Source: Neophaeotheca triangularis (taxonomy: Eukaryota). Taken from it: a stretch of 64,000 nt of DNA. The notes under the pieces were generated by a model, which was not told the origin of the DNA, searched no databases, and saw only the letters and a program-made list of their open reading frames with translations. A program made the translations under genes and the position numbers. The stretch lies in NCBI GenBank assembly GCA_054600435.1, contig BAAIJX010000039.1, positions 124,001-188,000 on the forward strand, given 5' to 3'. Shown piece after piece: positions 2 through 61,219 of this stretch (positions within the stretch are counted from its first letter, which is position 1; every line of letters begins with the position of its first letter).

Positions 2-709
2 CCGTAAATTAGACGGCTGGCCCCTAAACCGATCATCACCAGGCGGTATCTCCAGCGCAGCTTCGGACCCCAGCACCTCCCGCACAGCCCTCACAAACAT
101 CCCACGATCCAATTCCTCGGGCCCCGTAATCTCTCCAACCCAAAATTTCACCCTTCCCCGCTGGAGCTTTCTCAGTGGCGACAAGATCCTGGCCTTTTCC
201 TCCCAACCATGCGTTGCTGTCGTATCCACCCAGCTGACGGTGACAGCATTCAACTCCGGAGCCTGGAGCAAGACATCGCAAGCCCTGTCAGCACGACGTC
301 TGATCTCGGCGCAGAAGCTTTCCAGTCCAAAGCTGGGGTACTCCTTTAAAAGCAAGATGTCGCAAAAGAAGACGACTTCCACTTTGCGTAAGCGCTTCAG
401 ACTAGGGCTACGTTCGAGTTTGACGAGGTCTGGGTCTACGCGGAAGAAGTTGAAGGCGTGGCTGAAGATGAGCTTCCACGTGGTTATCTTGTAGAAGTGA
501 TCGAGTAGCTCGGCGGTGAATGCAGGGTGGATTAAAAGTAGACCCAGCGATGGCGGGCGATGGGACACTGCTGTTATTCCTACTGATGGCAGTGGGTGTG
601 AGACGTTTTCTTGGGGGATCAGATGAGTCCAAATCTGATCACGGAGTTCGACCGGGAGACGGAGGATGGGAGGAGGAAGTTCAGTCGGGGACGGTAAAGA
701 CAATGACAT
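2..709 (-). CDS. Hypothetical protein with N-terminal F-box-like motif; 3' end runs off the window
   Basis: Not in the ORF track because no stop falls inside the window. Manual translation from ATG 709: MSLSLPSPTELPPPILRLPVELRDQIWTHLI...LLLIHPAFTAELLDHFYKITTWKL... stays open to position 2. LRLPVELRDQIW is the typical fungal F-box-like signature. Confidence 0.75.
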   Translation of the reverse strand, partial: MSLSLPSPTELPPPILRLPVELRDQIWTHLIPQENVSHPLPSVGITAVSHRPPSLGLLLIHPAFTAELLDHFYKITTWKLIFSHAFNFFRVDPDLVKLERSPSLKRLRKVEVVFFCDILLLKEYPSFGLESFCAEIRRRADRACDVLLQAPELNAVTVSWVDTTATHGWEEKARILSPLRKLQRGRVKFWVGEITGPEELDRGMFVRAVREVLGSEAALEIPPGDDRFRGQPSNLR

Positions 710-43772: not shown

Positions 43773-46003
43773 ATGGGTCGACGCAAGATCGAGGTATGCT
43801 TACACTCGCGAGAGTCGTTTTGGGGATGTTGACAGTGTACTGACGAGTTTGCGCGCAATTGCAGATCAAGCCCATACCCGATGAGCGCAACCGCTCCGTC
43901 ACCTTTCTCAAGCGCAAGGGCGGGCTCTTCAAGAAGGCGCATGAGCTGTCGGTGCTGTGTTCGGTCGATGTGGCTGTCATTATCTTTGGGCATAATAAGA
44001 AATTGTATGAGTACTCGAGTGGGGATATTAATGAGACGGTTGGGCGGTTTCAATATGTAGGTTTGGTCGACAAGTGACGAGGGAATTGGGATTGGATGGA
44101 ATTGCTGACGGTGTTTATACAGTATGGCAGCGCGCACGAACACAAGGGACCGGCGGACTTTGCTGACAAGGGTGGAGGCGACGGAGATGATGACGATGAG
44201 GATGGAGCCGCGGGTGATGAAGGAGGTGATCAGAGGGCGACGCCTGAGAGACCCATGATGCAACCGCAGATGCAACATCATCCTGGTTTTCAGCATGTCA
44301 GACAACATACGCCCGGCGCGCAGAACTCACCGCCGATGCCGAATGGAGGGATGCCGCAATTTCAGCGAGGACCGTCGCCGCTGCCGCCGGGACATCCGCT
44401 GTCGAGGCCTTCGTCACGCGCTTCACAGCATCAGACTCAGCCGCAGCATCTCAGACGGACGAGCTCGAACTTGGTGCCGCAGCAACATGCGCAGAACCAG
44501 GGTCCCCCTCCCCAGCCGAACTATGCTTACACGCCTAATCCGCCCTTTTACAACCCGCAACAAGCTGCTGCCGCAGCGCAGATGCAACAACGTCCCTCGC
44601 AGCCTGGCCAGCCGATGCCAGCTGCCACGTACCCTCCTACCTATGCGCAACAGCATCCGCAGCATCCACAACAGGGTCCCACACCCCAGCAAATACAGCA
44701 GGCGTACATGCAGGACAGCAGACGGCAATCCATGCCACCAGCCTTTCCACCGCAGCCTGGTCCACCTCAAGCGCCAATGTCGAGACATCCTTCTCAAGAC
44801 CACTTACAGCCGCCGCAACAAGGTCATCATACGCCGCAGCAACATCCACGACCCATGCCGTCGCCTCAACCGCCGCAACAAGAGTTTCCAAAGCAGGAAT
44901 TTACCAGCCCCCAAATGCCTCAACCCAAGCCTCTTCCAGCTCATGCTAAAAACCACAGTATCTTCACGCCGATAGACGACAGCAGATCACTCTTGGCGCA
45001 GCACTGGGGATCTACAGGTAACGCAGAGCCGCCGCGCTCCGAAACCACGATCAAAACGGAGAACGAAGCTGGACCTCGACCGGCATCCATCGATGTAGCA
45101 GCCATGCAGCGACAGAAGAACGCCAACGGCGCCATGTCCTCACCACGTCAGCGACCCCCGCAACCGCCTTCCAGACCCCTGCCGAAATCCCCTCAACCGC
45201 CCCCGCGCGCCGCCAGTGTTACAGGCGCACCTACCCCTCCCACCCGCGCCGGCACCAACCAATCCGACGCCGCCAAGCGCCCCCGTCTCCGCGTCGCCAT
45301 CCCGAGTGAGCACTCCGGCGACGAAGGCGGCAATACCGGGAGTGCACCCGACGAAACCTCTACCTCGCAAACCGCCGCCACGACAGGTGGGGGAGGAGGC
45401 GGTTCCCTCTTCCAAACCACCAACTCCGGGCCCGGTGCACCCGCCCATGGCGTCGTACTCCCCCCACCCTCCCCCTCGCACGGCGCGCTCTTATCAGCAG
45501 GCGCCCAAGGCCCTCCGAACCCCTTCGCCCGGCCCCCACCCCCCATGTCCACAAATCCGCACGCCATGAACCGCGACAGCCCGGCGCAGCAACAATCCCA
45601 ACAACAATCCCAACAACAACAGCAACAACAACAACATCAATCGCAACAACAGCCCCAACACGCCCCAACCCAACAACTCCAAAACCAATCCCAAAACATC
45701 GAAACCCCCATTTCGGCACTCCCTTCGCGCTTCATGTCCGATAATTTGCTGCCCTCGCCAAGCACCTTTTACCCCGAATGGGGTTTCGGCCGGTCCGGGG
45801 GCGAGAGCGGGGTGAGTCTGCCTAGTCCGATGAATTTCCAGACGCCGGTGGTGGGGAATATGGCGCAAGGGTGGGGAAGGAGTGGTGGGACGGGTGGTGG
45901 GAATGGGAACGAGGAGGAGAGGGAGAGGGAGCGAGAGAGGAAGAGGGGGGCTGAGGAGGAAGCGGGAGATGGAGGGAGGGAGGGTAAGAGGGGGAGGTTG
46001 TGA
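43773..46003 (+). CDS. RLM1: MEF2-type MADS-box transcription factor
   Basis: [48 protein letters not shown]. Introns 43794-43864 and 44057-44122. P/Q-rich tail with [14 protein letters not shown] and [17 protein letters not shown]. Confidence 0.95.
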
Positions 46004-49899: not shown

Positions 49900-51210
49900 C
49901 TAATCCCTATCCTTCCTATGCCTCAGACTTCCAATCCTCCTCTTCAAACCCGCCTTCAAGCTGCCACTCCTGCCAATCCCACCGGCCGACGAGTTGGGCA
50001 AATCGCGATCATTGGCGTGCTGCAAATCCGCGTAAGCACCGTCGTCTCCCGCAATCTCCACCGGGTCGCGAGCATCCAGTTTCCCCTTTTGGCCAGCTTC
50101 GCGGTGTTCCTTTTTCAGGTGCGAGCGGTCTTGCAACTCCATCTCGCCGGAGTCGGAGATCTTGTGGGCTTGGAGGGCTTTGTCGAGGGAGTAAGCGGGC
50201 TCGCCTTTGCCGGCTAGGTCATCTTGATCATAGTCCTAGAGAAGTAAAGGCATTAGTACGCTGGCGTGAGGGAGTGGGGGAGGGCGTGAGAATTGTAGCT
50301 TACCGTGCCTGGCCACCGCTTGTACCCAGCATTGGTCGTGGCGCCCTCACGCATCATGTCCGTACCCTCTTCGTAATCGTACACGCGCCCGAACTGGTCT
50401 GGCTGGCCAGGCGGCACGTCGGCGACGTGGTCAAGCGGCTTGTGGCCCTTGATGGCATCCTTAATGACCTCCTTGGGCGTCGCGTTGATGGCCTCCTGGT
50501 TGCTGCTCTCAACGGCAGCCAGCGGCGCGCTCTTGTAGCTCGTGTTCCTCGCCAGCAGTGCGGCATCGAATGGTCCCTCGTGGTGGTAGGCTGCGCCTCC
50601 AATGGCTGGGTCGAGACGGTCGATCATGTCAGCACCGGGCTGGTGCTGCTTCCTGAGGTGCGGCGAGCGGTGCGCCTTCTTGCTGTCCCGTCTAAGGATC
50701 TCGAGGGGCTGGTTGCTCATGTCGCCTGGGTGACGTTCCTTCAGCGAGCTGCTACGGCGGGAGCGGTTAGCTCCTCCTGCTGTGTCGGAGCCGGCACGGC
50801 TGTGGCGGGCGAGGTCTCCAGAACGACGTTGGTCACCGCTGCGACGGCGGGTGGGGTCCATGCCTCCGAAAGCCTCGTCGCGGTAGGATGGGAAGGGAGC
50901 GCTGGGGCTGCCGGATTTGGGGTTGCTGGCTTTGCGCGGAGGGTGGCCTTGGCCGGTAGAGGATTCACGGAAAGGGTTGTTGGTGCTCAGCGAGGAGCGT
51001 CCGGTGTCGTTTTTGCTGGCGGGTGGATTGGCTGGAGCGAAGGTGCTGCCGAAGTGAGAGCCCGGGCCAGTGTCTTCGGAAGGGTCCGTCTCGGTCATTG
51101 GATCGATCAGGACGGCGGCAGCCTGGGGGGAGGAGTCAGTAGTTGTCCCATGCGAAGCACATGATTCAGAGACATGGACTTACGTCTTTGGACGACACTG
51201 GCTGAGCCAT
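49900..51210 (-). CDS. PAL1: Pal1 cell morphology protein
   Basis: Exons 51184-51210, 50304-51122 and 49900-50235. NNPF motif, DMIDRLD...YHHEGPFDAALLARN..APLAAV, and GYKRWPG|DYDQDDLAGKGEPAYS. Confidence 0.88.
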
Positions 51211-52897: not shown

Positions 52898-53296
52898 GCG
52901 TTCAGGGTGGGCAATCGCACTTCCAGTCAGTGTCACGAGCTGAGGCATACCTTACTGAAGGCAAGCGATCTACTGCACCAACCAAACGCATTATCAAACG
53001 CGTATCGAAGAAGACTTGTGGTAGCAAAAGCAAAAACAGGTTTCATAGCTCACACCGTAAACCAAGCCATAAACAATACCCAAAACCAAATGAACCTTGA
53101 AACCTCAAAAAACCACACCTATTCCCACAAAAGACCGTCGCATCGTTCACAAGGAGAAGAAAAACCAGGAAAAGAAGCATCCAACACACCACCCAAAATC
53201 AAACCCCACCCATACTCCACACCCGCAGTCAAAACAAAAGCCCCGAAAAACCAGACCCGCGAGCATAAACAAATACCACGACCGAACCCCACAACC

Positions 53297-53920
53297 TCAA
53301 TCGCACCTTTCCTTCCTCCCCGCCCCCACCCCAACACCACCCTCGTCCCCAAACCCCAAACTCCCAGCCCCAACACCCTTCACCCCCTCACCAGCCCAAA
53401 CACACTCAACCGCAACCCCCGTTTCCAAATCCAAATCATCAGGCTCCGGAATCGGCGGCAACGGCCTCGGCGGCCTCGGCTCCCACGGCCCCGGCGTTCC
53501 AGGTCCACCACCCGATGACAATCCCGCGCTCTCCATCAAAGCACCGCTCGGCCATTGCCGTGGACCCTCCTCCTCCTCTTCCTGCGGCGGCGACGGCGAA
53601 GGCGGCGAAGGCGTCCTAGGCGGCGGGCACGGAAGCGGTAGAGGTCCCAGAGGCCCGGGCTCGGGGTAGGGGTTTGGGTAGGGGCGGGTGGGGTCCGGGT
53701 GGGGGTCGGGACGGGGATCTGGGCGGGGGACGCGCGGGGACGGGGGTGGGGTGGTGGTGTTGGCGGTGGTTGGTTGGTTGGAGTATTGGGTCGTGAGGTT
53801 GTGGGAGTTGATTGGACCGAAGGGTTTCTCGGGGTGGGCTTTTGGGTCGCGGTGGTGGGGGTGGTTTTGAGTCCGGATTGGAGCGGCCATGGTTGCGCTT
53901 TGGCTTGAGGACGGAGGCAT
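53297..53920 (-). CDS. Possible proline-rich hypothetical protein
   Basis: ATG-initiated 207-aa low-complexity ORF with (PDP/PRP)n repeats and no recognisable domain. Confidence 0.3.
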   Translation of the reverse strand: MPPSSSQSATMAAPIRTQNHPHHRDPKAHPEKPFGPINSHNLTTQYSNQPTTANTTTPPPSPRVPRPDPRPDPHPDPTRPYPNPYPEPGPLGPLPLPCPPPRTPSPPSPSPPQEEEEEGPRQWPSGALMESAGLSSGGGPGTPGPWEPRPPRPLPPIPEPDDLDLETGVAVECVWAGEGVKGVGAGSLGFGDEGGVGVGAGRKERCD

Positions 53921-54385
53921 TGCTGATATCGGCGTCGGTTAAGAGTCGTTTTGTCGTTTTGTCGTTTTGTCGGTGGGTCGTATACGTTTGACAGAGGTTG
54001 ATTAGGGCGGGTTTGAAAATCGTTTTTGGTTGGTAGAAAAGATGATTGGAAGGATTTGAAGAGGGTTGGATTATGAGAAGCAGGAAAGAAGTAGAGCATG
54101 CCGTATATATACCCCCCTTACCTTCTTCGACATTGACGGGGAAGAGAGATGTTCAAATTGACGAATGTATTCTACTATATCAGCTAAACTACTCCAAACG
54201 TTTACCTATGCTGGAGCTATCAGTTACGTTTAGGCTAGTTTGCTTTCATGTCAGTAGTCGTGGTCGTAGTCATGAACACCTAGTATTTCCAGCGCTTTGG
54301 GTGCTTTTGTTTGACGATATTTCGACGCGCAAATAAGCTGTTGCGAAACCGGATTGCCACTTGCCCCTATCGTCGTTTGATCAAG

Positions 54386-57300
54386 CTATGCCAGCTCGTC
54401 TTCGCTACCTTCGACGTCCTTGACAGGCGTACTAGCATTCTTGCCATTCCTTACGGTCTTGACGTTAGAATGCCGGCGGGGCAACGGTGCCTCACGAGTG
54501 TTTAGCGTAGACTTTCTTCGATTGGGTTGCTTTGCCTTCTTGATTCCTGGGGCGGATGCCGGAGTCTTTACTTTGGGATTACTTGCCGAGGCTGGCGTAG
54601 TCTTCTTTCCTTTTTGTGACGCGCTGGCTCTTGCGTTTGCGGAGGTCGTCTCTTGCACAGATGGCTCGTCTTGCTGCGTTCTCGAACCGTCGACTTTTGC
54701 AGGAATCTCGTCTGGAGTCGAGCCATTGCTGGACGAGGGGGCTCTACTGGTGTCGATAGCAGGTTCCGAAACGTCTGTTGCTTCCTCGCGTTCTTTAGGG
54801 GATGAAGCGATCATTCTGGGAACCATGGGAGCGTTCCCGCGCCGCAATAGTGCCACTTCTTCCAAATTATCGATGGACACACTGGCATCTTCGTTCGTTC
54901 GCGAGCTCGACTGCTCAGCCGCAGAGGTCGAAATTGCTGGATGCGATGGAGTTTCTGGAACTGCGTTGGACGACGCACGCTCTCGGCGCTTTGAAGAGCC
55001 GATTAGTTCGTGCTTCTCCGGACTCAACATCGGGGCACCTTGCGCCTCGCCCTGCCCTTTCTTGGCCAATAAGTTGCCTTCCACTGTTGGATGAACAGGC
55101 TCCATCACAATGTCCCAAGCATCAGAAGGTGCAGTGGCCAGGAGTCCTTCGTCCAGCGAGCGCGGACAAGGCGTTCCACGGTCGGGAGCAGCGCTAGGAT
55201 CAGCAGAATTACTCTCATCCACAGTCCCACTAGCAGGATCAGCAACCTGTGCGTGCTTTGCGGGAACCGTAGCTGGAGAAGCGGTAGGCCTGGAGTAGCT
55301 CTCCAACAAGTCAAGGGTAGCCTTGCTCGGTGTCATTCTGGCATTGGCTTGATATTGCACCAGTCGACGCTTCGATGTGTTACCAGCGTGTCCCCCGTAA
55401 GTTCTTGGAGCCAAGCTGCACTCGTTGCCACCTCTGAAGCAAGACGTGCATGGTTTTCGACCATCGCAGTGTACATCGGCAGTGGTGCAAGAGTTGCAAG
55501 GTTTGACTCCGTGCTTTGAGTAGAAGGGAGGGCTCGACGACGAAGTATCGGCATTTGGAAGGTTGGTTGGATTGCTTTTGGAAGCTTGATCGTATTGATT
55601 GCTGGTGAGTACTATGCTCCCCTGCATGGGCGATGATGTAGTAGGGTCCCGATACACATCGGAAGTAGGCTGGGCTGCACTTGGTCTTGGAGACCCAGCT
55701 TGAACAGCAGAGTCGAGCTGTGGCATGTGGCTACTCCCAGTTGTGGAGATGAGACTGGGATCGTAGGCATCGAGCCCGTCAGAACCGGCGCCGGAAAGAC
55801 GTATATCGCTGCCTGTGGTAGCCCTAGCGGCATCTCCGAGAGTCAAATCTCCATTTGCAAGCCGCTGGTCTTCAACGCAAACGTGACAGTGCCAGGCATC
55901 GTCGGACTGCAGCGCCGACTCAGGAATTGGAGGCGCGTGGCAATCTGCATGAAAGCAACGGTTGCATCCGTCACAGCAGACCACTTCACCACCACCGTTG
56001 CAAGCAGAGCAAAAGTCGTCATGCGAGTCCTTTGCCCCTTGTTCTTGTAAGTCCTGGAACCCTTGGGGTATGGCGCTCTCATCAGAGGGAACACTGCGCG
56101 AGAACGTCCACTTGATAGGCATGCTGTCGGCTACCTGGACGAAGAGAGTCTTGTGCCGAAGTTGATTACGCAAAGTACTCTTCAAGCTCAGCTCCCGGGT
56201 GTAGTCGCTATACTCCTTGCGGAAGTACTCAAGGTTTGCCTGCATCCACTTGGTCATTTGAGCTACTGTCATTATTTGGTCTTCTGCCGAGCTCAGAGCC
56301 ATAATGATGAGGTCGCTCCAGCCGTGCCCGACCTCTTTCTGGGGGGAGTTTTCCATCATCACATTTGCTGTCTCATTGTGGACCTGCATATGATGCCCAT
56401 CGGAGCTGCGCCTGGGCCGTCTAAGCTTGCCGGCCACAGTGGGCACTGGATGCGGTGTTTGGTCACTGGGTTCGGCATCTAGGTCGCGTCTGTGTGAATT
56501 TTCTTGGCCGGATCCATTGATCGAAGCTTCTTGCGACGCTGGCCTGAACATAGGTGCTGGCGGTGGTGGAGCGAAGTATGGATGGCCTTGCGCAGTCGAT
56601 TTAGCGGGCGTAGCAAAGGCGGTTGCATGCCGTGCATGGCTGGGTGAATTGTGCCCTACTGCTGGCCCACCAAAAAGTGATCCATCGCTTCCTTCATCCA
56701 CTGCCTGGGTAGCGGCATTGGGTGTAGTTTCAACCGCTTCCATGTCAACACCCTTCGCGGGTGGATTTGGGTGCAGCGTCTTGTAGGCTAGCATCTGCCT
56801 GAGCGCGGGTGCAGGGACATCCTGATGCTCTCCATCACGCTTCTTGCCAAGAACGGTAGCGTAGCGCTGCTGTAATGCATTTGCGCTTCTAGTTGGGAAG
56901 TATCGAGCAATGATATCCCAGGATAGTTGACGCTCATCCCTAAGCTCGACAAGCATGCTGTCTTCCTCTTCACTGTAAAACTTGCTTGCCGAAGCTGTGC
57001 TACCAGGAGTGAAATCTGCAGGGGGGAGGCGCAGATTCGCCGGGAGTGGTGTCGCTACCTCTGTAGGTATTCCGGTCTCTCCTTCGGGACCCGCCAAGGC
57101 ATGCGAAGCTCTAGTGGGTGGCTTGGGTTTTGTGCTCTCTGGGCGCAGGATTTGGTACCTGTTTCTGACACCATCAAAGGTTCTGCCGCGCATGGCCCTG
57201 GCAACTTGGGGCCAAGTTGCCTTTTTAACCTCCCTCATCCAGATGAGAGCCTCGTCCTCAGCTGAGGTGTATCTTCTGCTTGATTTGGCAGCGCCAGGCG

Positions 57301-59365
57301 CTGTAGCACTTTCCGGTAGGCTCGCTTTCATAGCCAACATGATGCTCTGCTCTTCATCAGCGCGATCAGGCTTAGCTGATGGATTTGGAAGAGTTGGAAG
57401 GATTTTGCCTTCAATGTCCCGCTTGTAGCGTTTCTGCATGGACAAGGCAGTTCGCCCAGGGATCTTCACTTGTATTGCCTCCCAGCTGAGGCCGTCTTCT
57501 TCCCTTAGTTTCTTGATGAGCACATCGTCTTGGACGGTATACCGGCTGTGGGGTGCTGTGTCATTCTGCTCAACATGGGGCACTGTGTGGTTCCGCTTCC
57601 TCTTCAGAGGCGCAACAGATACGTCGACGGCCGTTCCTCCAGTTGATTCTCCCTTCAGTGAAAGGTAACGTTGTTCTACGGACTCTCGGCTCCGTTCAGG
57701 TAGGAGTGCAGCAACTTGATCCCAGCCAAAGGAGTTTCCATCCCTCAGCTGTACCAGGAGCTCGTCTTCGTCGCGGGAGTAGAACTCTGCACCCGCGTTT
57801 GCATGTGCTGCGCCACCCTTGTAGTCAGGAAAAACGTATCCTTGCTCAACCAAAGCATCGCGAGCCTCACCGGGTCGATCGAACAACTTTTTGCTATACC
57901 TGCCTTGGCAGGCGTGGCTTGACCGACCCCCCAAATGCTTCGACATCGCCTCCCAGCTCAAATTGTCGATTTCTTTGAACTTGATGAGAAGCATGTCTTC
58001 GTCTAAGGTGAAGCGCGTGTGCCTTGTACTACTCGTGCTACCACTGACTCGACGGCCGATATTGGCTACGTTTGGTGACGGATTGCCTTCCACAAAACTG
58101 TTCGAGATTTCTTCCTCGGGAGCTTCCTGATGATATCGCAGGCGGTCGAGAGGTTTCAGAAGGCCATATCGATACCAATACATGCCGCAGGCGTTACAAA
58201 GATTTGATGCACCACCTGGCCCCGACCTCCAACTGGGCGAAACAGTGATGCCACAATTCACACATCCTTTCCGACCTGTCGCGGCTACAGCAGCCTCTAG
58301 TTGCTCTCTGAGAGCCCCACCATCATCATTCTGCGGGGCTGCCTGTTGCTCGCCGTGTATCCCAGGCGTAAAATACGGTAGTTTTGCACGAGCCTCCATG
58401 ACCTTGCGCCTAGGACGAATGAACTTGGGGTGCTCCGGGGCTGCCCATATAGACTCTTCGTTTCCGGGAGAAGTAGGAAAAGCCTTGTCTCGCATCGATC
58501 GTGTGGTGGGCGGTTGAGCTGGTTGACGTTTTGGCTTTTTCGATTCAGGAAGCTCTGGAAAGTCCCACATGGTGTCCCTGCTTCGTTTCTTTCCTTTCTT
58601 AGCTCTCTCTGCTGTGTTGCCAGCCATGAAGTCGGCGATCTGTTTGGCTATGCTCTGCCCAAGAGCATTGATGGCGTCTGGATCGACAGAGCCTTCTTCT
58701 TTCGCCCTTGCTTGCAGCGTTTTCATCGACTCTTGGAGCGAAGGCAATTGCTGCAACAACGTTGGCTGAGCGTGCGTTTCTGAAGCAGCATCTCCACTGT
58801 CCCCTTCAATACTACTCTGAGTCTCTTCCTGCGCAGCAATGAGTAACGACGGCGAGAGCCTAGGCCGTTTCCCGGTCGATCCTGGAGCGGTAAATTGGCG
58901 CTCATGCTGTGCGCCTGAGCGTGACAACTCAGCGTCGACAGAGGGCCCCCCGGGCTTCAAGCGTGGATCGATTACGGGAGCATTGTCGCCACGCCTGCCT
59001 TCACTGCCAGATTCTGTATCCTGTGTAGAGTTTCCATCATCGTCACTGCTCCCGTCTTCTCCTTCCTGCTCTTCAAGCGATGCGGCGAAGTCCAGCATAA
59101 ACCTAGAAGCTGGTGCTTGGCCGGGGTCGACTTCGTGACGCATTCCAGATAAATGTCCATTGTCGACAACGACTTCCCCAGTCTGCAAATCAATCTCGTC
59201 TCCAACATCCTCAAAATCCTGCCCGTACTTTCTGAAGATGTGTTCGAATCGACCCTTCAGACGCTCATCGTTGGCTTGACGGTCGCGTTCAAGTTCGAGG
59301 CTTGGATCTTCTTCGGTCCCGTAAATCGGTCCTTCTGAGCCTGCTCGATCCGATGTATGCTCCAT
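54386..59365 (-). CDS. SCM3: Scm3-domain (CENP-A chaperone) protein fused to GATA, 5x Myb/SANT, forkhead-like, PHD and Zn2Cys6 domains
   Basis: N-terminal RQANDERLKGRFEHIFRKYGQDFEDVGDEIDLQTGEVVVDNGHL is the Scm3 signature. The other domains are detailed in the findings. Single uninterrupted 1659-aa ORF. Confidence 0.85.
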   Translation of the reverse strand: MEHTSDRAGSEGPIYGTEEDPSLELERDRQANDERLKGRFEHIFRKYGQDFEDVGDEIDLQTGEVVVDNGHLSGMRHEVDPGQAPASRFMLDFAASLEEQEGEDGSSDDDGNSTQDTESGSEGRRGDNAPVIDPRLKPGGPSVDAELSRSGAQHERQFTAPGSTGKRPRLSPSLLIAAQEETQSSIEGDSGDAASETHAQPTLLQQLPSLQESMKTLQARAKEEGSVDPDAINALGQSIAKQIADFMAGNTAERAKKGKKRSRDTMWDFPELPESKKPKRQPAQPPTTRSMRDKAFPTSPGNEESIWAAPEHPKFIRPRRKVMEARAKLPYFTPGIHGEQQAAPQNDDGGALREQLEAAVAATGRKGCVNCGITVSPSWRSGPGGASNLCNACGMYWYRYGLLKPLDRLRYHQEAPEEEISNSFVEGNPSPNVANIGRRVSGSTSSTRHTRFTLDEDMLLIKFKEIDNLSWEAMSKHLGGRSSHACQGRYSKKLFDRPGEARDALVEQGYVFPDYKGGAAHANAGAEFYSRDEDELLVQLRDGNSFGWDQVAALLPERSRESVEQRYLSLKGESTGGTAVDVSVAPLKRKRNHTVPHVEQNDTAPHSRYTVQDDVLIKKLREEDGLSWEAIQVKIPGRTALSMQKRYKRDIEGKILPTLPNPSAKPDRADEEQSIMLAMKASLPESATAPGAAKSSRRYTSAEDEALIWMREVKKATWPQVARAMRGRTFDGVRNRYQILRPESTKPKPPTRASHALAGPEGETGIPTEVATPLPANLRLPPADFTPGSTASASKFYSEEEDSMLVELRDERQLSWDIIARYFPTRSANALQQRYATVLGKKRDGEHQDVPAPALRQMLAYKTLHPNPPAKGVDMEAVETTPNAATQAVDEGSDGSLFGGPAVGHNSPSHARHATAFATPAKSTAQGHPYFAPPPPAPMFRPASQEASINGSGQENSHRRDLDAEPSDQTPHPVPTVAGKLRRPRRSSDGHHMQVHNETANVMMENSPQKEVGHGWSDLIIMALSSAEDQIMTVAQMTKWMQANLEYFRKEYSDYTRELSLKSTLRNQLRHKTLFVQVADSMPIKWTFSRSVPSDESAIPQGFQDLQEQGAKDSHDDFCSACNGGGEVVCCDGCNRCFHADCHAPPIPESALQSDDAWHCHVCVEDQRLANGDLTLGDAARATTGSDIRLSGAGSDGLDAYDPSLISTTGSSHMPQLDSAVQAGSPRPSAAQPTSDVYRDPTTSSPMQGSIVLTSNQYDQASKSNPTNLPNADTSSSSPPFYSKHGVKPCNSCTTADVHCDGRKPCTSCFRGGNECSLAPRTYGGHAGNTSKRRLVQYQANARMTPSKATLDLLESYSRPTASPATVPAKHAQVADPASGTVDESNSADPSAAPDRGTPCPRSLDEGLLATAPSDAWDIVMEPVHPTVEGNLLAKKGQGEAQGAPMLSPEKHELIGSSKRRERASSNAVPETPSHPAISTSAAEQSSSRTNEDASVSIDNLEEVALLRRGNAPMVPRMIASSPKEREEATDVSEPAIDTSRAPSSSNGSTPDEIPAKVDGSRTQQDEPSVQETTSANARASASQKGKKTTPASASNPKVKTPASAPGIKKAKQPNRRKSTLNTREAPLPRRHSNVKTVRNGKNASTPVKDVEGSEDELA

Positions 59366-59773: not shown

Positions 59774-61219
59774 ATGGCTGGCATGCGTTGCCAGAAGTGT
59801 CGGACGCCGCTCAAACTGGATGGCTCCCTGGAAGATCTAAATCCAGCCTCTTTCAAGATTCTCGCAGACGCTGCACCGGTATTGCAGCCAAAAGAGCCCG
59901 ATGCTCCTCGCTCAGCCGCGGCGAAGGAGCGTCGACAGCTTTACGATGAAGCCTCCCAAGAAGCAGGTCAACCAATCCATAAGAGGCTCTCCAGTTTAGG
60001 CCAGCACTCTGGAAGTAAAGCTAAACCAGATATGTCGTACATCATGCTATCTGATTCACAAATCGCCGCCCCAGACGAGTCGTTCGCGAACGAGACCAAA
60101 GGAGGGGCGAAAAAGCCTCCCTCGACTGCTCAAACAGGCGACGCTCCACTCTCACAGAAGATGGAGACTGTCACTCGTCTGTTTGAGATAATGTCTGCTC
60201 GCTCTGACATCGACCAACCAGTCTGTTCTGACTGCACCGAACTCTTGGTCGATGGCCTACAAAAGCGTCAAAGTAGCGTTGCTCGAGAACGCGACGCCTA
60301 CGTTGACTTTTTGAAGCAAGTACAAAGAGACATTCCCACCGATGAGGAGAAAGCCCAGACCTCGAAAGATCTTGAAGATGCTCAGCTACGTGAGAAGCAA
60401 GCGTTGGAGGAGCTTGAGGCGCTCGAGGCGGAGAAGGCGAAGATGGAGGATGAGATCGCTGCTTTGGATGCTGAGGCCGAGGACCTCGACGAAGAGGAAG
60501 AGCGCTTCTGGCGAGATCGAAACGCTTTCACTGCGGAGCTCACTGCCTTCCAAGAGGAGCGTGACAGCCTTCAGAACCAGCTGGCGCATGACACGAAACT
60601 TCTCGAAAGCCTGCAGCGAACAAATGTGTACAACGACACCTTCTGCATTGGGCACGATGGGCTTTTCGGAACCATCAATGGCATGAGGCTGGGGCGGTTG
60701 TCAGAGCATCCCGTTGAGTGGGCAGAGATTAATGCCGCTTGGGGACAGGCAGTACTACTACTGGCCGTCGTCGCCGAGAAGCTTGGCTATACGATGCAAG
60801 GGTACAGACTGCAGCCTCTCGGCTCGACATCAAAAATCGAGAAATTCGAGTATTCTCAGGGTTCGTCAAACGCTCAGTCTCGTCAGGGGAAGCCTAACGT
60901 CAAGCCCATGGAGCTCTACTGCAGCGGAGATCTCCCACTCGGGTTGGGATTTCTTCACCGCAACTTTGACAACGCCATGGTAGCTTTTCTAGATTGTCTG
61001 CGGCAGCTTGGCGAGCACGTAGAGCGGACATCGCAGACTCATCAGATGCCGTACAAGATTGTCAAGGACAAGATCAACGACACCAGTATCAAACTTGGCA
61101 ATTTCGGCCAGGAGGAACAATGGACAAAGGCTTGCAAGTACACATTGACTTGCTGCAAGTTTCTCTTGGCCCACGCCTCGCATGTCGATAGCGTGAGCGA
61201 CTCGAAGCCCGGGAGGTGA
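59774..61219 (+). CDS. ATG6: Autophagy protein 6 / Vps30 (Beclin-1)
   Basis: CQKCRTPLKLDGSLEDLNPA, SARSDIDQPVCSDC, coiled coil, TNVYNDTFCIGHDG.FGTINGMRLGRL, EWAEINAAWGQ and WTKACKYTLTCCKFLLAH. Confidence 0.96.
   Translation: MAGMRCQKCRTPLKLDGSLEDLNPASFKILADAAPVLQPKEPDAPRSAAAKERRQLYDEASQEAGQPIHKRLSSLGQHSGSKAKPDMSYIMLSDSQIAAPDESFANETKGGAKKPPSTAQTGDAPLSQKMETVTRLFEIMSARSDIDQPVCSDCTELLVDGLQKRQSSVARERDAYVDFLKQVQRDIPTDEEKAQTSKDLEDAQLREKQALEELEALEAEKAKMEDEIAALDAEAEDLDEEEERFWRDRNAFTAELTAFQEERDSLQNQLAHDTKLLESLQRTNVYNDTFCIGHDGLFGTINGMRLGRLSEHPVEWAEINAAWGQAVLLLAVVAEKLGYTMQGYRLQPLGSTSKIEKFEYSQGSSNAQSRQGKPNVKPMELYCSGDLPLGLGFLHRNFDNAMVAFLDCLRQLGEHVERTSQTHQMPYKIVKDKINDTSIKLGNFGQEEQWTKACKYTLTCCKFLLAHASHVDSVSDSKPGR

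Follow-up and report, generated by a model that had tools for sequence, protein, structure and literature searches.

The protein encoded in the window (the whole 64,000-nucleotide stretch of DNA analysed here) by the reading frame listed first in Table 1, and called P0001 below, is probably an Scm3/HJURP ortholog of the long Dothideomycete form, into which a PHD finger and a small six-cysteine zinc cluster have been inserted and which is held at its site of action by avidity. On this reading, an N-terminal Scm3 segment would be followed by one GATA finger, five Myb/SANT-like repeats, a divergent forkhead, long disordered linkers and an acidic C-terminal motif; and in the lineage of P0001 and one relative, P0002, the PHD finger and the six-cysteine cluster, the latter with a conserved segment of ~50 aa, would have been gained in the stretch that separates the forkhead from the C-terminus. 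The Scm3 segment would hold CenH3-H4, while the GATA finger, the Myb repeats, the winged helix and a basic tail would make weak, mostly low-specificity contacts whose avidity tethers the chaperone to centromeric chromatin, and the PHD finger would further recognise the H3 N-terminus in its unmodified state (H3K4me0), on H3 nucleosomes that lie nearby or serve as placeholders. The frame itself is uninterrupted and intronless, 1659 codons plus a stop with no internal stop in 4980 nt, exactly as originally predicted, and all six domain classes claimed for it can be detected there (Forkhead and Zn_clus below their Pfam cut-offs) at positions that agree with the prediction within a few codons, and to the nucleotide for the GATA finger and the zinc cluster.

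Table 1. Features of P0001 in window coordinates.
Feature	Residues (aa)	Position	Strand	Basis or remark
P0001, whole ORF	1-1659	54386..59365	-	Scm3/HJURP-family CenH3 chaperone (probable), long Dothideomycete form
Scm3 domain (CenH3/H4-binding segment)	25-76	59138..59293	-	Pfam PF10384
Conserved unannotated block (LPSL...ALGQSIA...FM)	~200-250	58616..58768	-	no Pfam family; alignment consensus
GATA-type zinc finger (C-x2-C-x18-C-x2-C)	368-402	58160..58264	-	Pfam PF00320
Myb/SANT-like repeat 1	449-495	57881..58021	-	Myb_DNA-bind_6 and sequence reading
Myb/SANT-like repeat 2, net charge -4	526-572	57650..57790	-	Myb_DNA-bind_6 and sequence reading
Myb/SANT-like repeat 3	606-653	57407..57550	-	Myb_DNA-bind_6 and sequence reading
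Myb/SANT-like repeat 4, net charge +6	695-742	57140..57283	-	Myb_DNA-bind_6 and sequence reading
Myb/SANT-like repeat 5 (best Pfam stretch 798-842)	794-842	56840..56986	-	Myb_DNA-bind_6 and sequence reading
Divergent forkhead winged-helix domain	1014-1100	56066..56326	-	ortholog profile, AF2, Foldseek
PHD finger (C4HC3), lineage-restricted insertion	1119-1163	55877..56011	-	Pfam PF00628
Zn2Cys6-like six-cysteine cluster, lineage-restricted	1290-1316	55418..55498	-	exact Cys spacing
Conserved segment after zinc cluster	1317-1365	55271..55417	-	no family
C-terminal tail, conserved acidic motif (G)SEDELA at end	1640-1659	54389..54448	-	alignment

Scm3/HJURP proteins escort CenH3-H4 and deposit it at centromeres, and membership of P0001 in this family, the core of the original prediction, is borne out. 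The N-terminal segment matches PF10384 at 82.7 bits (cut-off 24.3) over profile positions 1-52 of 53, and it aligns with the Scm3 part of the solved single-chain Cse4-Scm3-H4 (2L5A, E 6.8e-6) and with K. lactis Scm3 (2YFV, E 0.0034), the same search giving no match to HJURP. In an alignment of 23 sequences (P0001, P0002 and 21 orthologs) this segment is the best-conserved part of P0001, with 88% identity to P0002 and 66% to the 21 orthologs, compared with 21% for the forkhead. Chaperone activity and localisation at the centromere are inferred. Two stretches that belong to no domain are also conserved in that alignment, namely aa 211-240 (41% identity to the 21 orthologs at 99% occupancy) and the last nine residues (64%), and an acidic C-terminus of the EDEL/DEL type ends 12 of the 14 relatives inspected. 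The GATA finger scores 42.9 bits against PF00320 (cut-off 26.8), has its cysteine pattern at aa 368-393 and is 89% identical to that of P0002, and the Myb repeats, whose limits were set by reading the sequence by eye instead of by Pfam borders, match Myb_DNA-bind_6 (PF13921) in five stretches at 98.1 bits, above its cut-off, and PF00249 in four at 78.3 bits. The GATA, PHD and six-cysteine spacing patterns each occur once in P0001, and together these clusters take up 19 of its 21 cysteines; the protein contains no AT-hook-like GRP motif.

Most of this architecture is ordinary among relatives. Scm3 was found in 52 of the 61 representatives scanned, and among these 52 a GATA match is present in 50 and a Forkhead match in 33 (29 of them reaching the cut-off of 27), leaving 19 without one, so that the forkhead is common, not universal; a PHD match occurs once, in P0002. 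A separate Scm3-domain search, using precomputed Pfam assignments for 34 proteins besides P0001, gave GATA in 27, Forkhead in 10 and PHD in one. Since these proportions are so high and the named relatives with GATA or Forkhead add-ons are all Dothideomycetes, the order Scm3-GATA-Myb(n)-Forkhead is the norm for that class, and the Scm3 proteins of Septoria linicola (P0050, whose source names it 'Putative centromere protein Scm3/HJURP'), Cladosporium, Recurvomyces, Vermiconidia and Meristemomyces run from Scm3 through GATA, Mybs and forkhead to an acidic C-terminus just as P0001 does. The original prediction had presented the combination of domains as exceptional, which it is not: four of the six classes form an architecture that is already common, an outcome which the prediction had itself named as refuting it, and rarity is limited to the PHD finger and the Zn2Cys6-like cluster, both confined among the relatives scanned to P0001 and P0002 and missing from the other Dothideomycete orthologs. 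Judging by these profile searches, then, what is unusual in P0001 comes down to the PHD finger and the small zinc cluster. Both sit between the forkhead and the C-terminal SEDELA motif, and because SEDELA is shared by orthologs that have neither, both modules are internal to the orthologous frame. The ESM Atlas gave no usable match.

The PHD finger scores 30.9 bits against PF00628 (cut-off 24), with a complete C4HC3 pattern, and its best PDB matches by phmmer are CHD4 (2.4e-13), Cph2 (1.6e-12), AIRE PHD1 (1.3e-11), PHF12 (4e-11) and Rco1 (2e-10). The fingers of ING, BPTF and TAF3, which read H3K4me3, are absent from its 40 PDB matches at E<=1e-4. It was modelled twice: a first AF2 model stayed below pLDDT 60, and a second, built on a deeper alignment, reached a mean of 77.8 and was placed by Foldseek on AIRE PHD1 (2KFT, target TM 0.77, rmsd 2.0), with Rco1 in Rpd3S, BHC80, CHD4/5 and TRIM24/33/66 as further matches. 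By sequence and predicted fold, the finger is thus closest to the PHD1 of Rco1/Cph2/PHF12 and to AIRE PHD1, all of which read unmodified H3K4. The traits of such readers are an acidic residue before the first cysteine, the Asp of a CCDGC motif and the lack of an aromatic cage; in 18 aligned PHD fingers the zinc-ligand columns are invariant, the Asp two residues before Cys1 is nearly so and the Asp in CCDGC is invariant, and P0001 has both. Similarity and these residue roles together suggest H3K4me0 specificity. The two-PHD layout in the alignment and the PDB matches are also consistent with a finger copied from an Rco1-like gene; among the nine clusters of nearest PHD-only proteins none carries an informative name (one is just called 'hypothetical protein').

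The claim that a single protein reads both DNA and the state of H3 has to be divided. Reading of the H3 state is plausible, given a finger of the Rco1/AIRE type, and the DNA half of the claim is weakened, since the canonical Asn and His are missing from the forkhead and basic residues between Cys2 and Cys3 from the zinc cluster. A bolder view, less likely than not, is that P0001 is a CenH3 chaperone with a built-in reader of the H3K4me0 tail, a candidate zinc contact module and a forkhead that docks on nucleosomes. The PHD finger would then recognise the tails of neighbouring or placeholder H3, and perhaps that of CenH3 too; the six-cysteine cluster and the tail after it may constitute a new module for protein or DNA contact; and the forkhead of Dothideomycete Scm3 may dock the chaperone on nucleosomal DNA in the manner of a linker histone or pioneer factor. 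If so, CenH3 deposition would be coupled directly to the local histone state, a coupling that normally runs through separate licensing factors.

The strongest form of the DNA claim would have centromeres specified genetically and epigenetically at once by this one protein, with GATA, Myb, forkhead and Zn2Cys6 modules reading DNA and the PHD finger reading H3. All the modules do lie in one conserved ORF, the GATA and Myb parts are conserved across the class, and among PDB entries the zinc cluster comes closest, if weakly, to Cep3, a Zn2Cys6 protein that reads centromere DNA within budding-yeast CBF3; even so I consider it unlikely, on account of the forkhead and the zinc cluster. The forkhead is real as a fold, notwithstanding a Pfam score under the cut-off (23.8 bits, E 4.8e-5, aa 1016-1081), to judge from three results: a profile built from 32 ortholog segments, with P0001 and P0002 left out, scores 48.6 bits over aa 1009-1114, and Pfam Forkhead itself gives up to 62.5 bits at this position in orthologs; the AF2 model of aa ~1019-1089 has a pLDDT of 94-98; and Foldseek superposes it on the DNA-binding domains of FoxO1 and FoxO4 (target TM 0.73-0.83, rmsd ~2 A), which together with FoxA and FoxP head the list. 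Its recognition helix, however, reads LKSTLRNQLR where FoxO has WKNSIRHNLS, and the Asn and His that contact bases in canonical forkheads are both replaced; the helix motif can be recognised in 16 of the 32 orthologs, three of which have N at the first position and none H at the second. The segment has a net charge of 0, which makes even non-specific DNA binding by it uncertain.

The zinc cluster is a similar case. The spacing C-x2-C-x6-C-x5-C-x2-C-x6-C is exact in P0001 and P0002 and never arose in 20000 shuffles of the protein, yet Zn_clus scores 16.9 bits (aa 1289-1319, E 0.007; 19.2 bits in P0002) against a cut-off of 21, and this part of the AF2 model, where the alignment is two sequences deep, stays below pLDDT 50. 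Eight of the nine PDB matches at E<=10, all of them weak, are Zn2Cys6 proteins, the ninth being a capsid protein. In Gal4-type clusters the basic residues between Cys2 and Cys3 contact CGG; here they are missing, P0001 having TTADVH and P0002 TSAGVR in their place. I also rejected the Cep3 match (E 0.037) as a sign of centromere-DNA reading, as it is barely better than those to Pho7 (0.18-0.21) or Gal4 (0.26). With the canonical base-contact positions not conserved in either module, sequence-specific reading is doubtful, and neither the forkhead nor the zinc cluster is likely to recognise a particular DNA sequence.

One could instead regard P0001 as chiefly, or additionally, a transcription factor whose GATA-Myb-forkhead body regulates genes, histone genes for example, and in which the Scm3 segment plays an accessory part. 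It does contain DNA-binding domains of three transcription-factor classes, relatives bear such names as 'MYB transcription factor 8' (Cladosporium cladosporioides) and 'GATA-type/Myb-like domain-containing protein', and the fission-yeast GATA factor Ams2 activates core histone genes, according to abstracts (PMC2910015). Those names are automatic, however, and the segment that would have to be the accessory is the best-conserved part of P0001 (66% identity to the 21 orthologs, the forkhead 21%), the architecture goes along with Scm3 in 52 representatives, and neither an activation domain nor any further mark of a transcription factor could be found in P0001, all of which makes this view very unlikely.

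I think it equally improbable that the PHD finger and the zinc cluster are mere passengers, captured recently (from an Rco1-like PHD1, for example) and playing no part at the centromere. Their presence in just two known proteins, their location in a long, poorly conserved and indel-rich linker region, the Rco1-family PHD1s as closest fingers, which would suit a copied module, and the zinc cluster's place under the Pfam cut-off could all be read that way. Neutral modules should, however, have diverged as far as the linkers have, and the conservation peaks speak against the passenger view: against an overall identity to P0002 of 54%, the PHD finger keeps 78% (the linker before it 22%), the zinc cluster 63% and the segment after it 61% (aa 1317-1380, compared with 30% for aa 1381-1600), while flanking linkers keep 22-40%, and neither protein has lost a zinc ligand or either of the two conserved Asp residues. 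Identity above that of the linkers, with all ligands kept, argues that both insertions are under constraint.

Finally, that at least two neighbouring genes, or a retained intron, have been read through as one frame is extremely improbable, for even if intronless 5-kb genes are uncommon and no RNA contig spans the entire ORF, there are the 4980 nt without a stop, the identical order of parts in P0002 and in dozens of relatives of 1300-2100 aa, and the bracketing of all parts by an orthologous N-terminus (Scm3) and C-terminus (SEDELA). An assembly chimera, which had been named as a danger, is excluded because P0001 is colinear end to end (53-54% identity, 99% coverage) with P0002, a protein of 1654 aa from an independent contig. 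In metatranscriptome data (one run), 6% of the sampled words are present and the match is limited to a single 618-nt RNA contig over 54195-54812, with eight differences, which covers the final 142 codons and runs on for 191 nt past the stop; a full-length transcript of the ORF was not found there.

What, then, does P0001 add? That fungal Scm3 proteins gain lineage-specific DNA-binding modules has been known since 2007, according to a passage in PMC8997354, and for this reason P0001 adds cases to a known trend, not a new principle. The fusion of Scm3 with GATA, forkhead, PHD or winged-helix domains was not found, by title or abstract, in the searchable literature; one paper mentions Scm3 and forkhead as separate proteins (10.1101/721753) and another says nothing of GATA, forkhead or PHD domains on Scm3 (PMC5889037). 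The forkhead winged helix emerges as a normal component of Scm3 across an entire fungal class, with a recognition helix that lacks the canonical base-contact positions, and a forkhead of this description is absent from the same searchable literature, to which Aravind 2007 does not belong; nor did that literature yield a chaperone for CenH3 that carries its own reader of histone tails. Through an Rco1/AIRE-type PHD finger, such a chaperone would directly and physically link the state of histone tails to CenH3 loading. Given that in the related Zymoseptoria tritici the centromeres lack a consensus motif, and that no histone mark tested there follows CenH3, according to PMC4589918, this link offers a simple and testable hypothesis for what marks a centromere site, one whose generality is limited by the occurrence of the finger in two proteins.

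The individual modules each have known counterparts. The P0001 finger shares its acidic residue before Cys1 and its CCDGC motif with those of Rco1/Cph2/PHF12 (Rpd3S/SIN3B deacetylase complexes), AIRE PHD1, BHC80 and CHD4 PHD2, its best matches in sequence or fold, and the titles of structure entries show such fingers in complex with peptides from the N-terminus of H3, in some cases unmodified ones; these fingers, however, reside in deacetylase, remodeller or transcription-regulator proteins, and that of P0001 in a histone chaperone. With the FoxO subfamily the forkhead has in common the winged-helix fold and an extra stretch before helix 3, and it differs from FOX domains in its sub-threshold score, replaced recognition residues and lack of net charge. 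The six-cysteine cluster has the exact spacing and the CDG..PC core of Gal4, Pho7 and Cep3, and is set apart from them by its internal instead of N-terminal position, its low Pfam score and its missing basic residues. As for whole proteins, the Scm3 of budding yeast is about 200 aa long, has no DNA-binding modules and is brought to point centromeres by CBF3; it is the CenH3/H4-binding segment of the S. cerevisiae and K. lactis proteins that aligns with P0001. Ams2 (a GATA factor; abstracts, PMC2910015) and Mis18BP1/KNL-2 (Myb/SANT) are separate proteins of the CENP-A pathway, whereas in P0001 GATA and Myb modules are fused to the chaperone itself, a likeness that is an analogy by domain class only. 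The long fungal Scm3 proteins of Aravind, Iyer and Wu (2007), as summarised in a passage of PMC8997354, combine an N-terminal CenH3-binding Scm3 segment with a variable C-terminal DNA-binding extension, as P0001 does, and to the modules named in that summary P0001 adds three that it does not name: forkhead, PHD and Zn2Cys6.

The 1659 codons and stop at 54386..59365 (minus strand) form one open reading frame, and its protein, P0001, is judged by sequence an Scm3/HJURP ortholog, whose Scm3 segment, better conserved than any other part, aligns to the Cse4-H4-bound segment in 2L5A and 2YFV. The original prediction, that this CenH3 chaperone is fused to five classes of DNA- or chromatin-reader domain, described a real arrangement with coordinates correct to within a few codons; Pfam finds all six classes, although two of them, Forkhead and Zn_clus, fall below its cut-offs. 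A pattern scan places the GATA, PHD and Zn2Cys6 cysteine patterns once each in P0001, 19 of its 21 cysteines lie within these three clusters, and the Zn2Cys6 spacing appeared in none of 20000 shuffles of the protein. A helix-like block without annotation (LPSL...ALGQSIA..FM) is also conserved in 21 orthologs, with 41% identity to them at aa 211-240, and the alignment consensus shows the shorter motifs DP.W.YPELP and SLWAP C-terminal of it.

Features of the Scm3 frame and its surroundings, with identity to the relative P0002 taken from a 23-sequence alignment
Feature	Position	Strand	Evidence	Identity to P0002
Scm3	aa 25-76	-	Pfam 82.7 bits, curated cut-off 24.3	
Unannotated helix-like block	58616-58768, aa ~200-250	-	alignment of orthologs	
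GATA	aa 368-402	-	Pfam 42.9 bits, curated cut-off 26.8	
Myb_DNA-bind_6	five stretches	-	Pfam 98.1 bits, curated cut-off 22.9	
Forkhead	aa 1016-1081	-	Pfam 23.8 bits, E 4.8e-5; cut-off 27 not reached	
Forkhead-PHD linker		-		22%
PHD	aa 1119-1163	-	Pfam 30.9 bits, curated cut-off 24	78%
PHD-Zn linker		-		40%
Zn_clus	aa 1289-1319	-	Pfam 16.9 bits, E 0.007; cut-off 21 not reached	
Six-cysteine cluster	55418..55498, aa 1290-1316	-	exact Zn2Cys6 spacing	63%
64 residues after the cluster		-		61%
Distal region	aa 1381-1600	-		30%
(G)SEDELA motif	54389-54448	-	conserved end of P0001; no Pfam family covers it	
Metatranscriptome contig	54195-54812		618 nt	
Low-complexity ORFs	53090-54099	both	proline-/arginine-rich, overlapping	
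Atg6/Beclin ortholog	59774-61219	+	APG6 BARA domain 245 bits, APG6_N 130.7 bits	

That the frame is a single gene is supported by P0002, a 1654-aa protein from an independent contig that matches P0001 at 53% identity over 99% of its length with the parts in the same order (54% overall in the 23-sequence alignment). The frame starts with the orthologous Scm3 segment and finishes with an acidic (G)SEDELA motif, present in 12 of the 14 Scm3 relatives printed, so the PHD and six-cysteine modules sit within a frame that orthologs share and do not come from read-through of a neighbouring gene. Transcript evidence is limited to one metatranscriptome run, which contains 6% of the sampled words of the sequence and yields the single contig listed; this spans the final 142 codons plus 191 nt beyond the stop and is compatible with one message as well as with several. 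When the C-termini of P0001 and P0002-P0080 are considered together, the acidic motif is often preceded by RVV.TP.R, and it has the look of a site for docking or phosphorylation particular to these long Scm3 proteins. Just downstream of the stop, the low-complexity ORFs, in a kilobase of 59% GC, are probably untranslated or simple sequence and not genes; elsewhere in 1-kb bins, G+C reaches 0.641 at 45001-46000 and 0.626 at 50001-51000 against a window average of about 0.54. On the other side, the Atg6/Beclin gene is divergent from the Scm3 gene, 408 bp from its start codon, and the two would have a short bidirectional promoter region in common.

The combination of domains had also been thought exceptional, which proved mostly unfounded. 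When aa 342-1361 of P0001 were searched exhaustively by HMMER against 1.84 billion representatives, 41 matches fell below 1e-30, and Pfam was run on 61 of the top 150 matches, the long ones and a few short; Scm3 was present in 52 of these, the remaining nine being either fragments that lack the N-terminus or Myb/WD40 proteins without relation to it. Among the 52, GATA was matched in 50 and Forkhead in 33, located C-terminal of the Myb repeats and at or above the cut-off of 27 in 29 cases (best 62.5 bits), while a PHD or Zn_clus match was found in P0002 only, part of the scan having listed matches at E <= 0.001, where weak Zn_clus matches could go unseen. When every protein gathered up to that point was scanned for the cysteine patterns, the six-cysteine spacing occurred in P0001 and P0002 only, and none of the other proteins with Scm3 showed the C4HC3 pattern. 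Seeding a search with the Scm3 segment brought up 34 proteins besides P0001, partly overlapping the HMMER set; in their precomputed Pfam annotation, 27 have GATA, 10 have Forkhead and one, P0002, has PHD. A search seeded with aa 1000-1340 returned P0002, one unrelated PHD protein and nothing else. The named relatives with these modules are all Dothideomycetes (Septoria, Cladosporium, Recurvomyces, Vermiconidia, Meristemomyces, Oleoguttula, Baudoinia, Lecanosticta, Cryoendolithus, Rachicladosporium, Viridothelium and Polychaeton, the last with Scm3 and Myb only), and the one Sordariomycete match, from Sodiomyces, has Scm3 alone. Thus Scm3-GATA-Myb(n)-Forkhead is the ordinary Dothideomycete form, and only the PHD finger and six-cysteine cluster are special to P0001 and P0002. 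Public records name the orthologs P0191, P0197 and P0021 "MYB transcription factor 8", "GATA-type domain-containing protein" or "Myb-like domain-containing protein", and fungal catalogues of transcription factors probably include these centromere chaperones by mistake. The near-identical orthologs P0006 and P0155 (one 90% cluster; Meristemomyces, Oleoguttula) are 1947 and 2346 aa long, some 400 aa apart, which suggests that start or intron calls for the family are inconsistent across public annotations.

Could the two additions be decaying passengers? Their identity to P0002 speaks against this, since it peaks at both modules (see table) and all zinc ligands are retained, and the insertions therefore behave as selected modules. 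Against the PDB, the PHD finger is closest to CHD4 (2.4e-13), fission yeast Cph2 (1.6e-12) and AIRE PHD1 (1.3e-11), then PHF12 (4e-11), SP140, Rco1 (2e-10) and BHC80, with TRIM24/33/66 lower and no ING, BPTF or TAF3 finger among the 40 matches at E <= 1e-4. The closest PHDs among representatives have the Rco1-family layout, in which a conserved block separates the first PHD from another, and when the nearest are aligned the Asp two residues ahead of Cys1 is nearly invariant and that of CCDGC invariant. The model from that alignment (mean pLDDT 77.8) matches AIRE PHD1 (TM by target 0.77), Rco1 within Rpd3S, BHC80 and CHD4/5, and the titles of several matched entries name an H3 N-terminal peptide, in some cases unmodified, as the bound partner. 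PHD fingers of the Rco1/AIRE type read H3K4me0 through those two Asp residues, and I infer that the finger of P0001 may do the same.

The six-cysteine cluster is harder to place. Its spacing is exactly that of Zn2Cys6 in both proteins, and the Zn_clus score of P0002 (19.2 bits) is, like that of P0001, under the cut-off. Eight of nine PDB matches at E <= 10 are Zn2Cys6 proteins, all weak (Cep3 0.037, Pho7 0.18-0.21, Gal4 0.26), and the structure model is unreliable here. In clusters of the Gal4 type, basic residues lie between Cys2 and Cys3; at that place P0001 has TTADVH and P0002 TSAGVR. The cluster is best called Zn2Cys6-like, its family membership being unproven and its reading of DNA doubtful. 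The best of the PDB matches, Cep3 (7K7G chain M), is the Zn2Cys6 subunit of the budding-yeast centromere complex CBF3, a resemblance that is probably coincidental given the margins.

For the sub-threshold Forkhead, a profile built from segments of 32 orthologs, excluding P0001 and P0002, matched P0001 at aa 1009-1114 with 48.6 bits, P0002 with 41.7 and the more distant relative P0005 with 35.7. An AlphaFold2 model of aa 990-1340 from a 23-row alignment has pLDDT 94-98 at about aa 1019-1089, and the highest-ranking Foldseek entries were all forkhead DNA-binding domains, from FoxO1 and FoxO4, with TM by target 0.73-0.83 and rmsd about 2 A. Taken together, the fold of this region is therefore forkhead. 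Compared with FoxO, the recognition helix is non-canonical, LKSTLRNQLR against WKNSIRHNLS in FoxO4 and FoxO1; a simple helix motif was detected in 16 of the 32 orthologs, with N at the Asn position in three and H at the His position in none. These two residues contact bases in FOX-DNA structures, and the net charge of the P0001 domain is 0. The domain is best described as a divergent winged helix of the forkhead type, and it probably does not recognise the FOX consensus.

Fungal Scm3 proteins carry lineage-specific DNA-binding domains, as reported in 2007. Full-text literature searches, judged mainly by title and abstract, returned no publication on a fused Scm3 (with GATA, forkhead, PHD finger or winged helix), so far as those summaries tell, and the class-wide forkhead fusion seems undiscussed in print; since it is visible in public precomputed Pfam, it is known to databases nonetheless. 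What remains new is that, in two known proteins, a CenH3 chaperone carries a PHD finger and a Zn2Cys6-like cluster. Many weak contacts, made by the basic tail and by the GATA, Myb and winged-helix modules, would probably tether the chaperone to centromeric chromatin, and in the lineage of P0001 and P0002 the PHD finger may add recognition of the unmodified H3 tail. Such an arrangement agrees with a report on the related Dothideomycete Zymoseptoria tritici, whose centromeres are without a consensus motif and where no single tested histone mark tracks CenH3 (PMC4589918).
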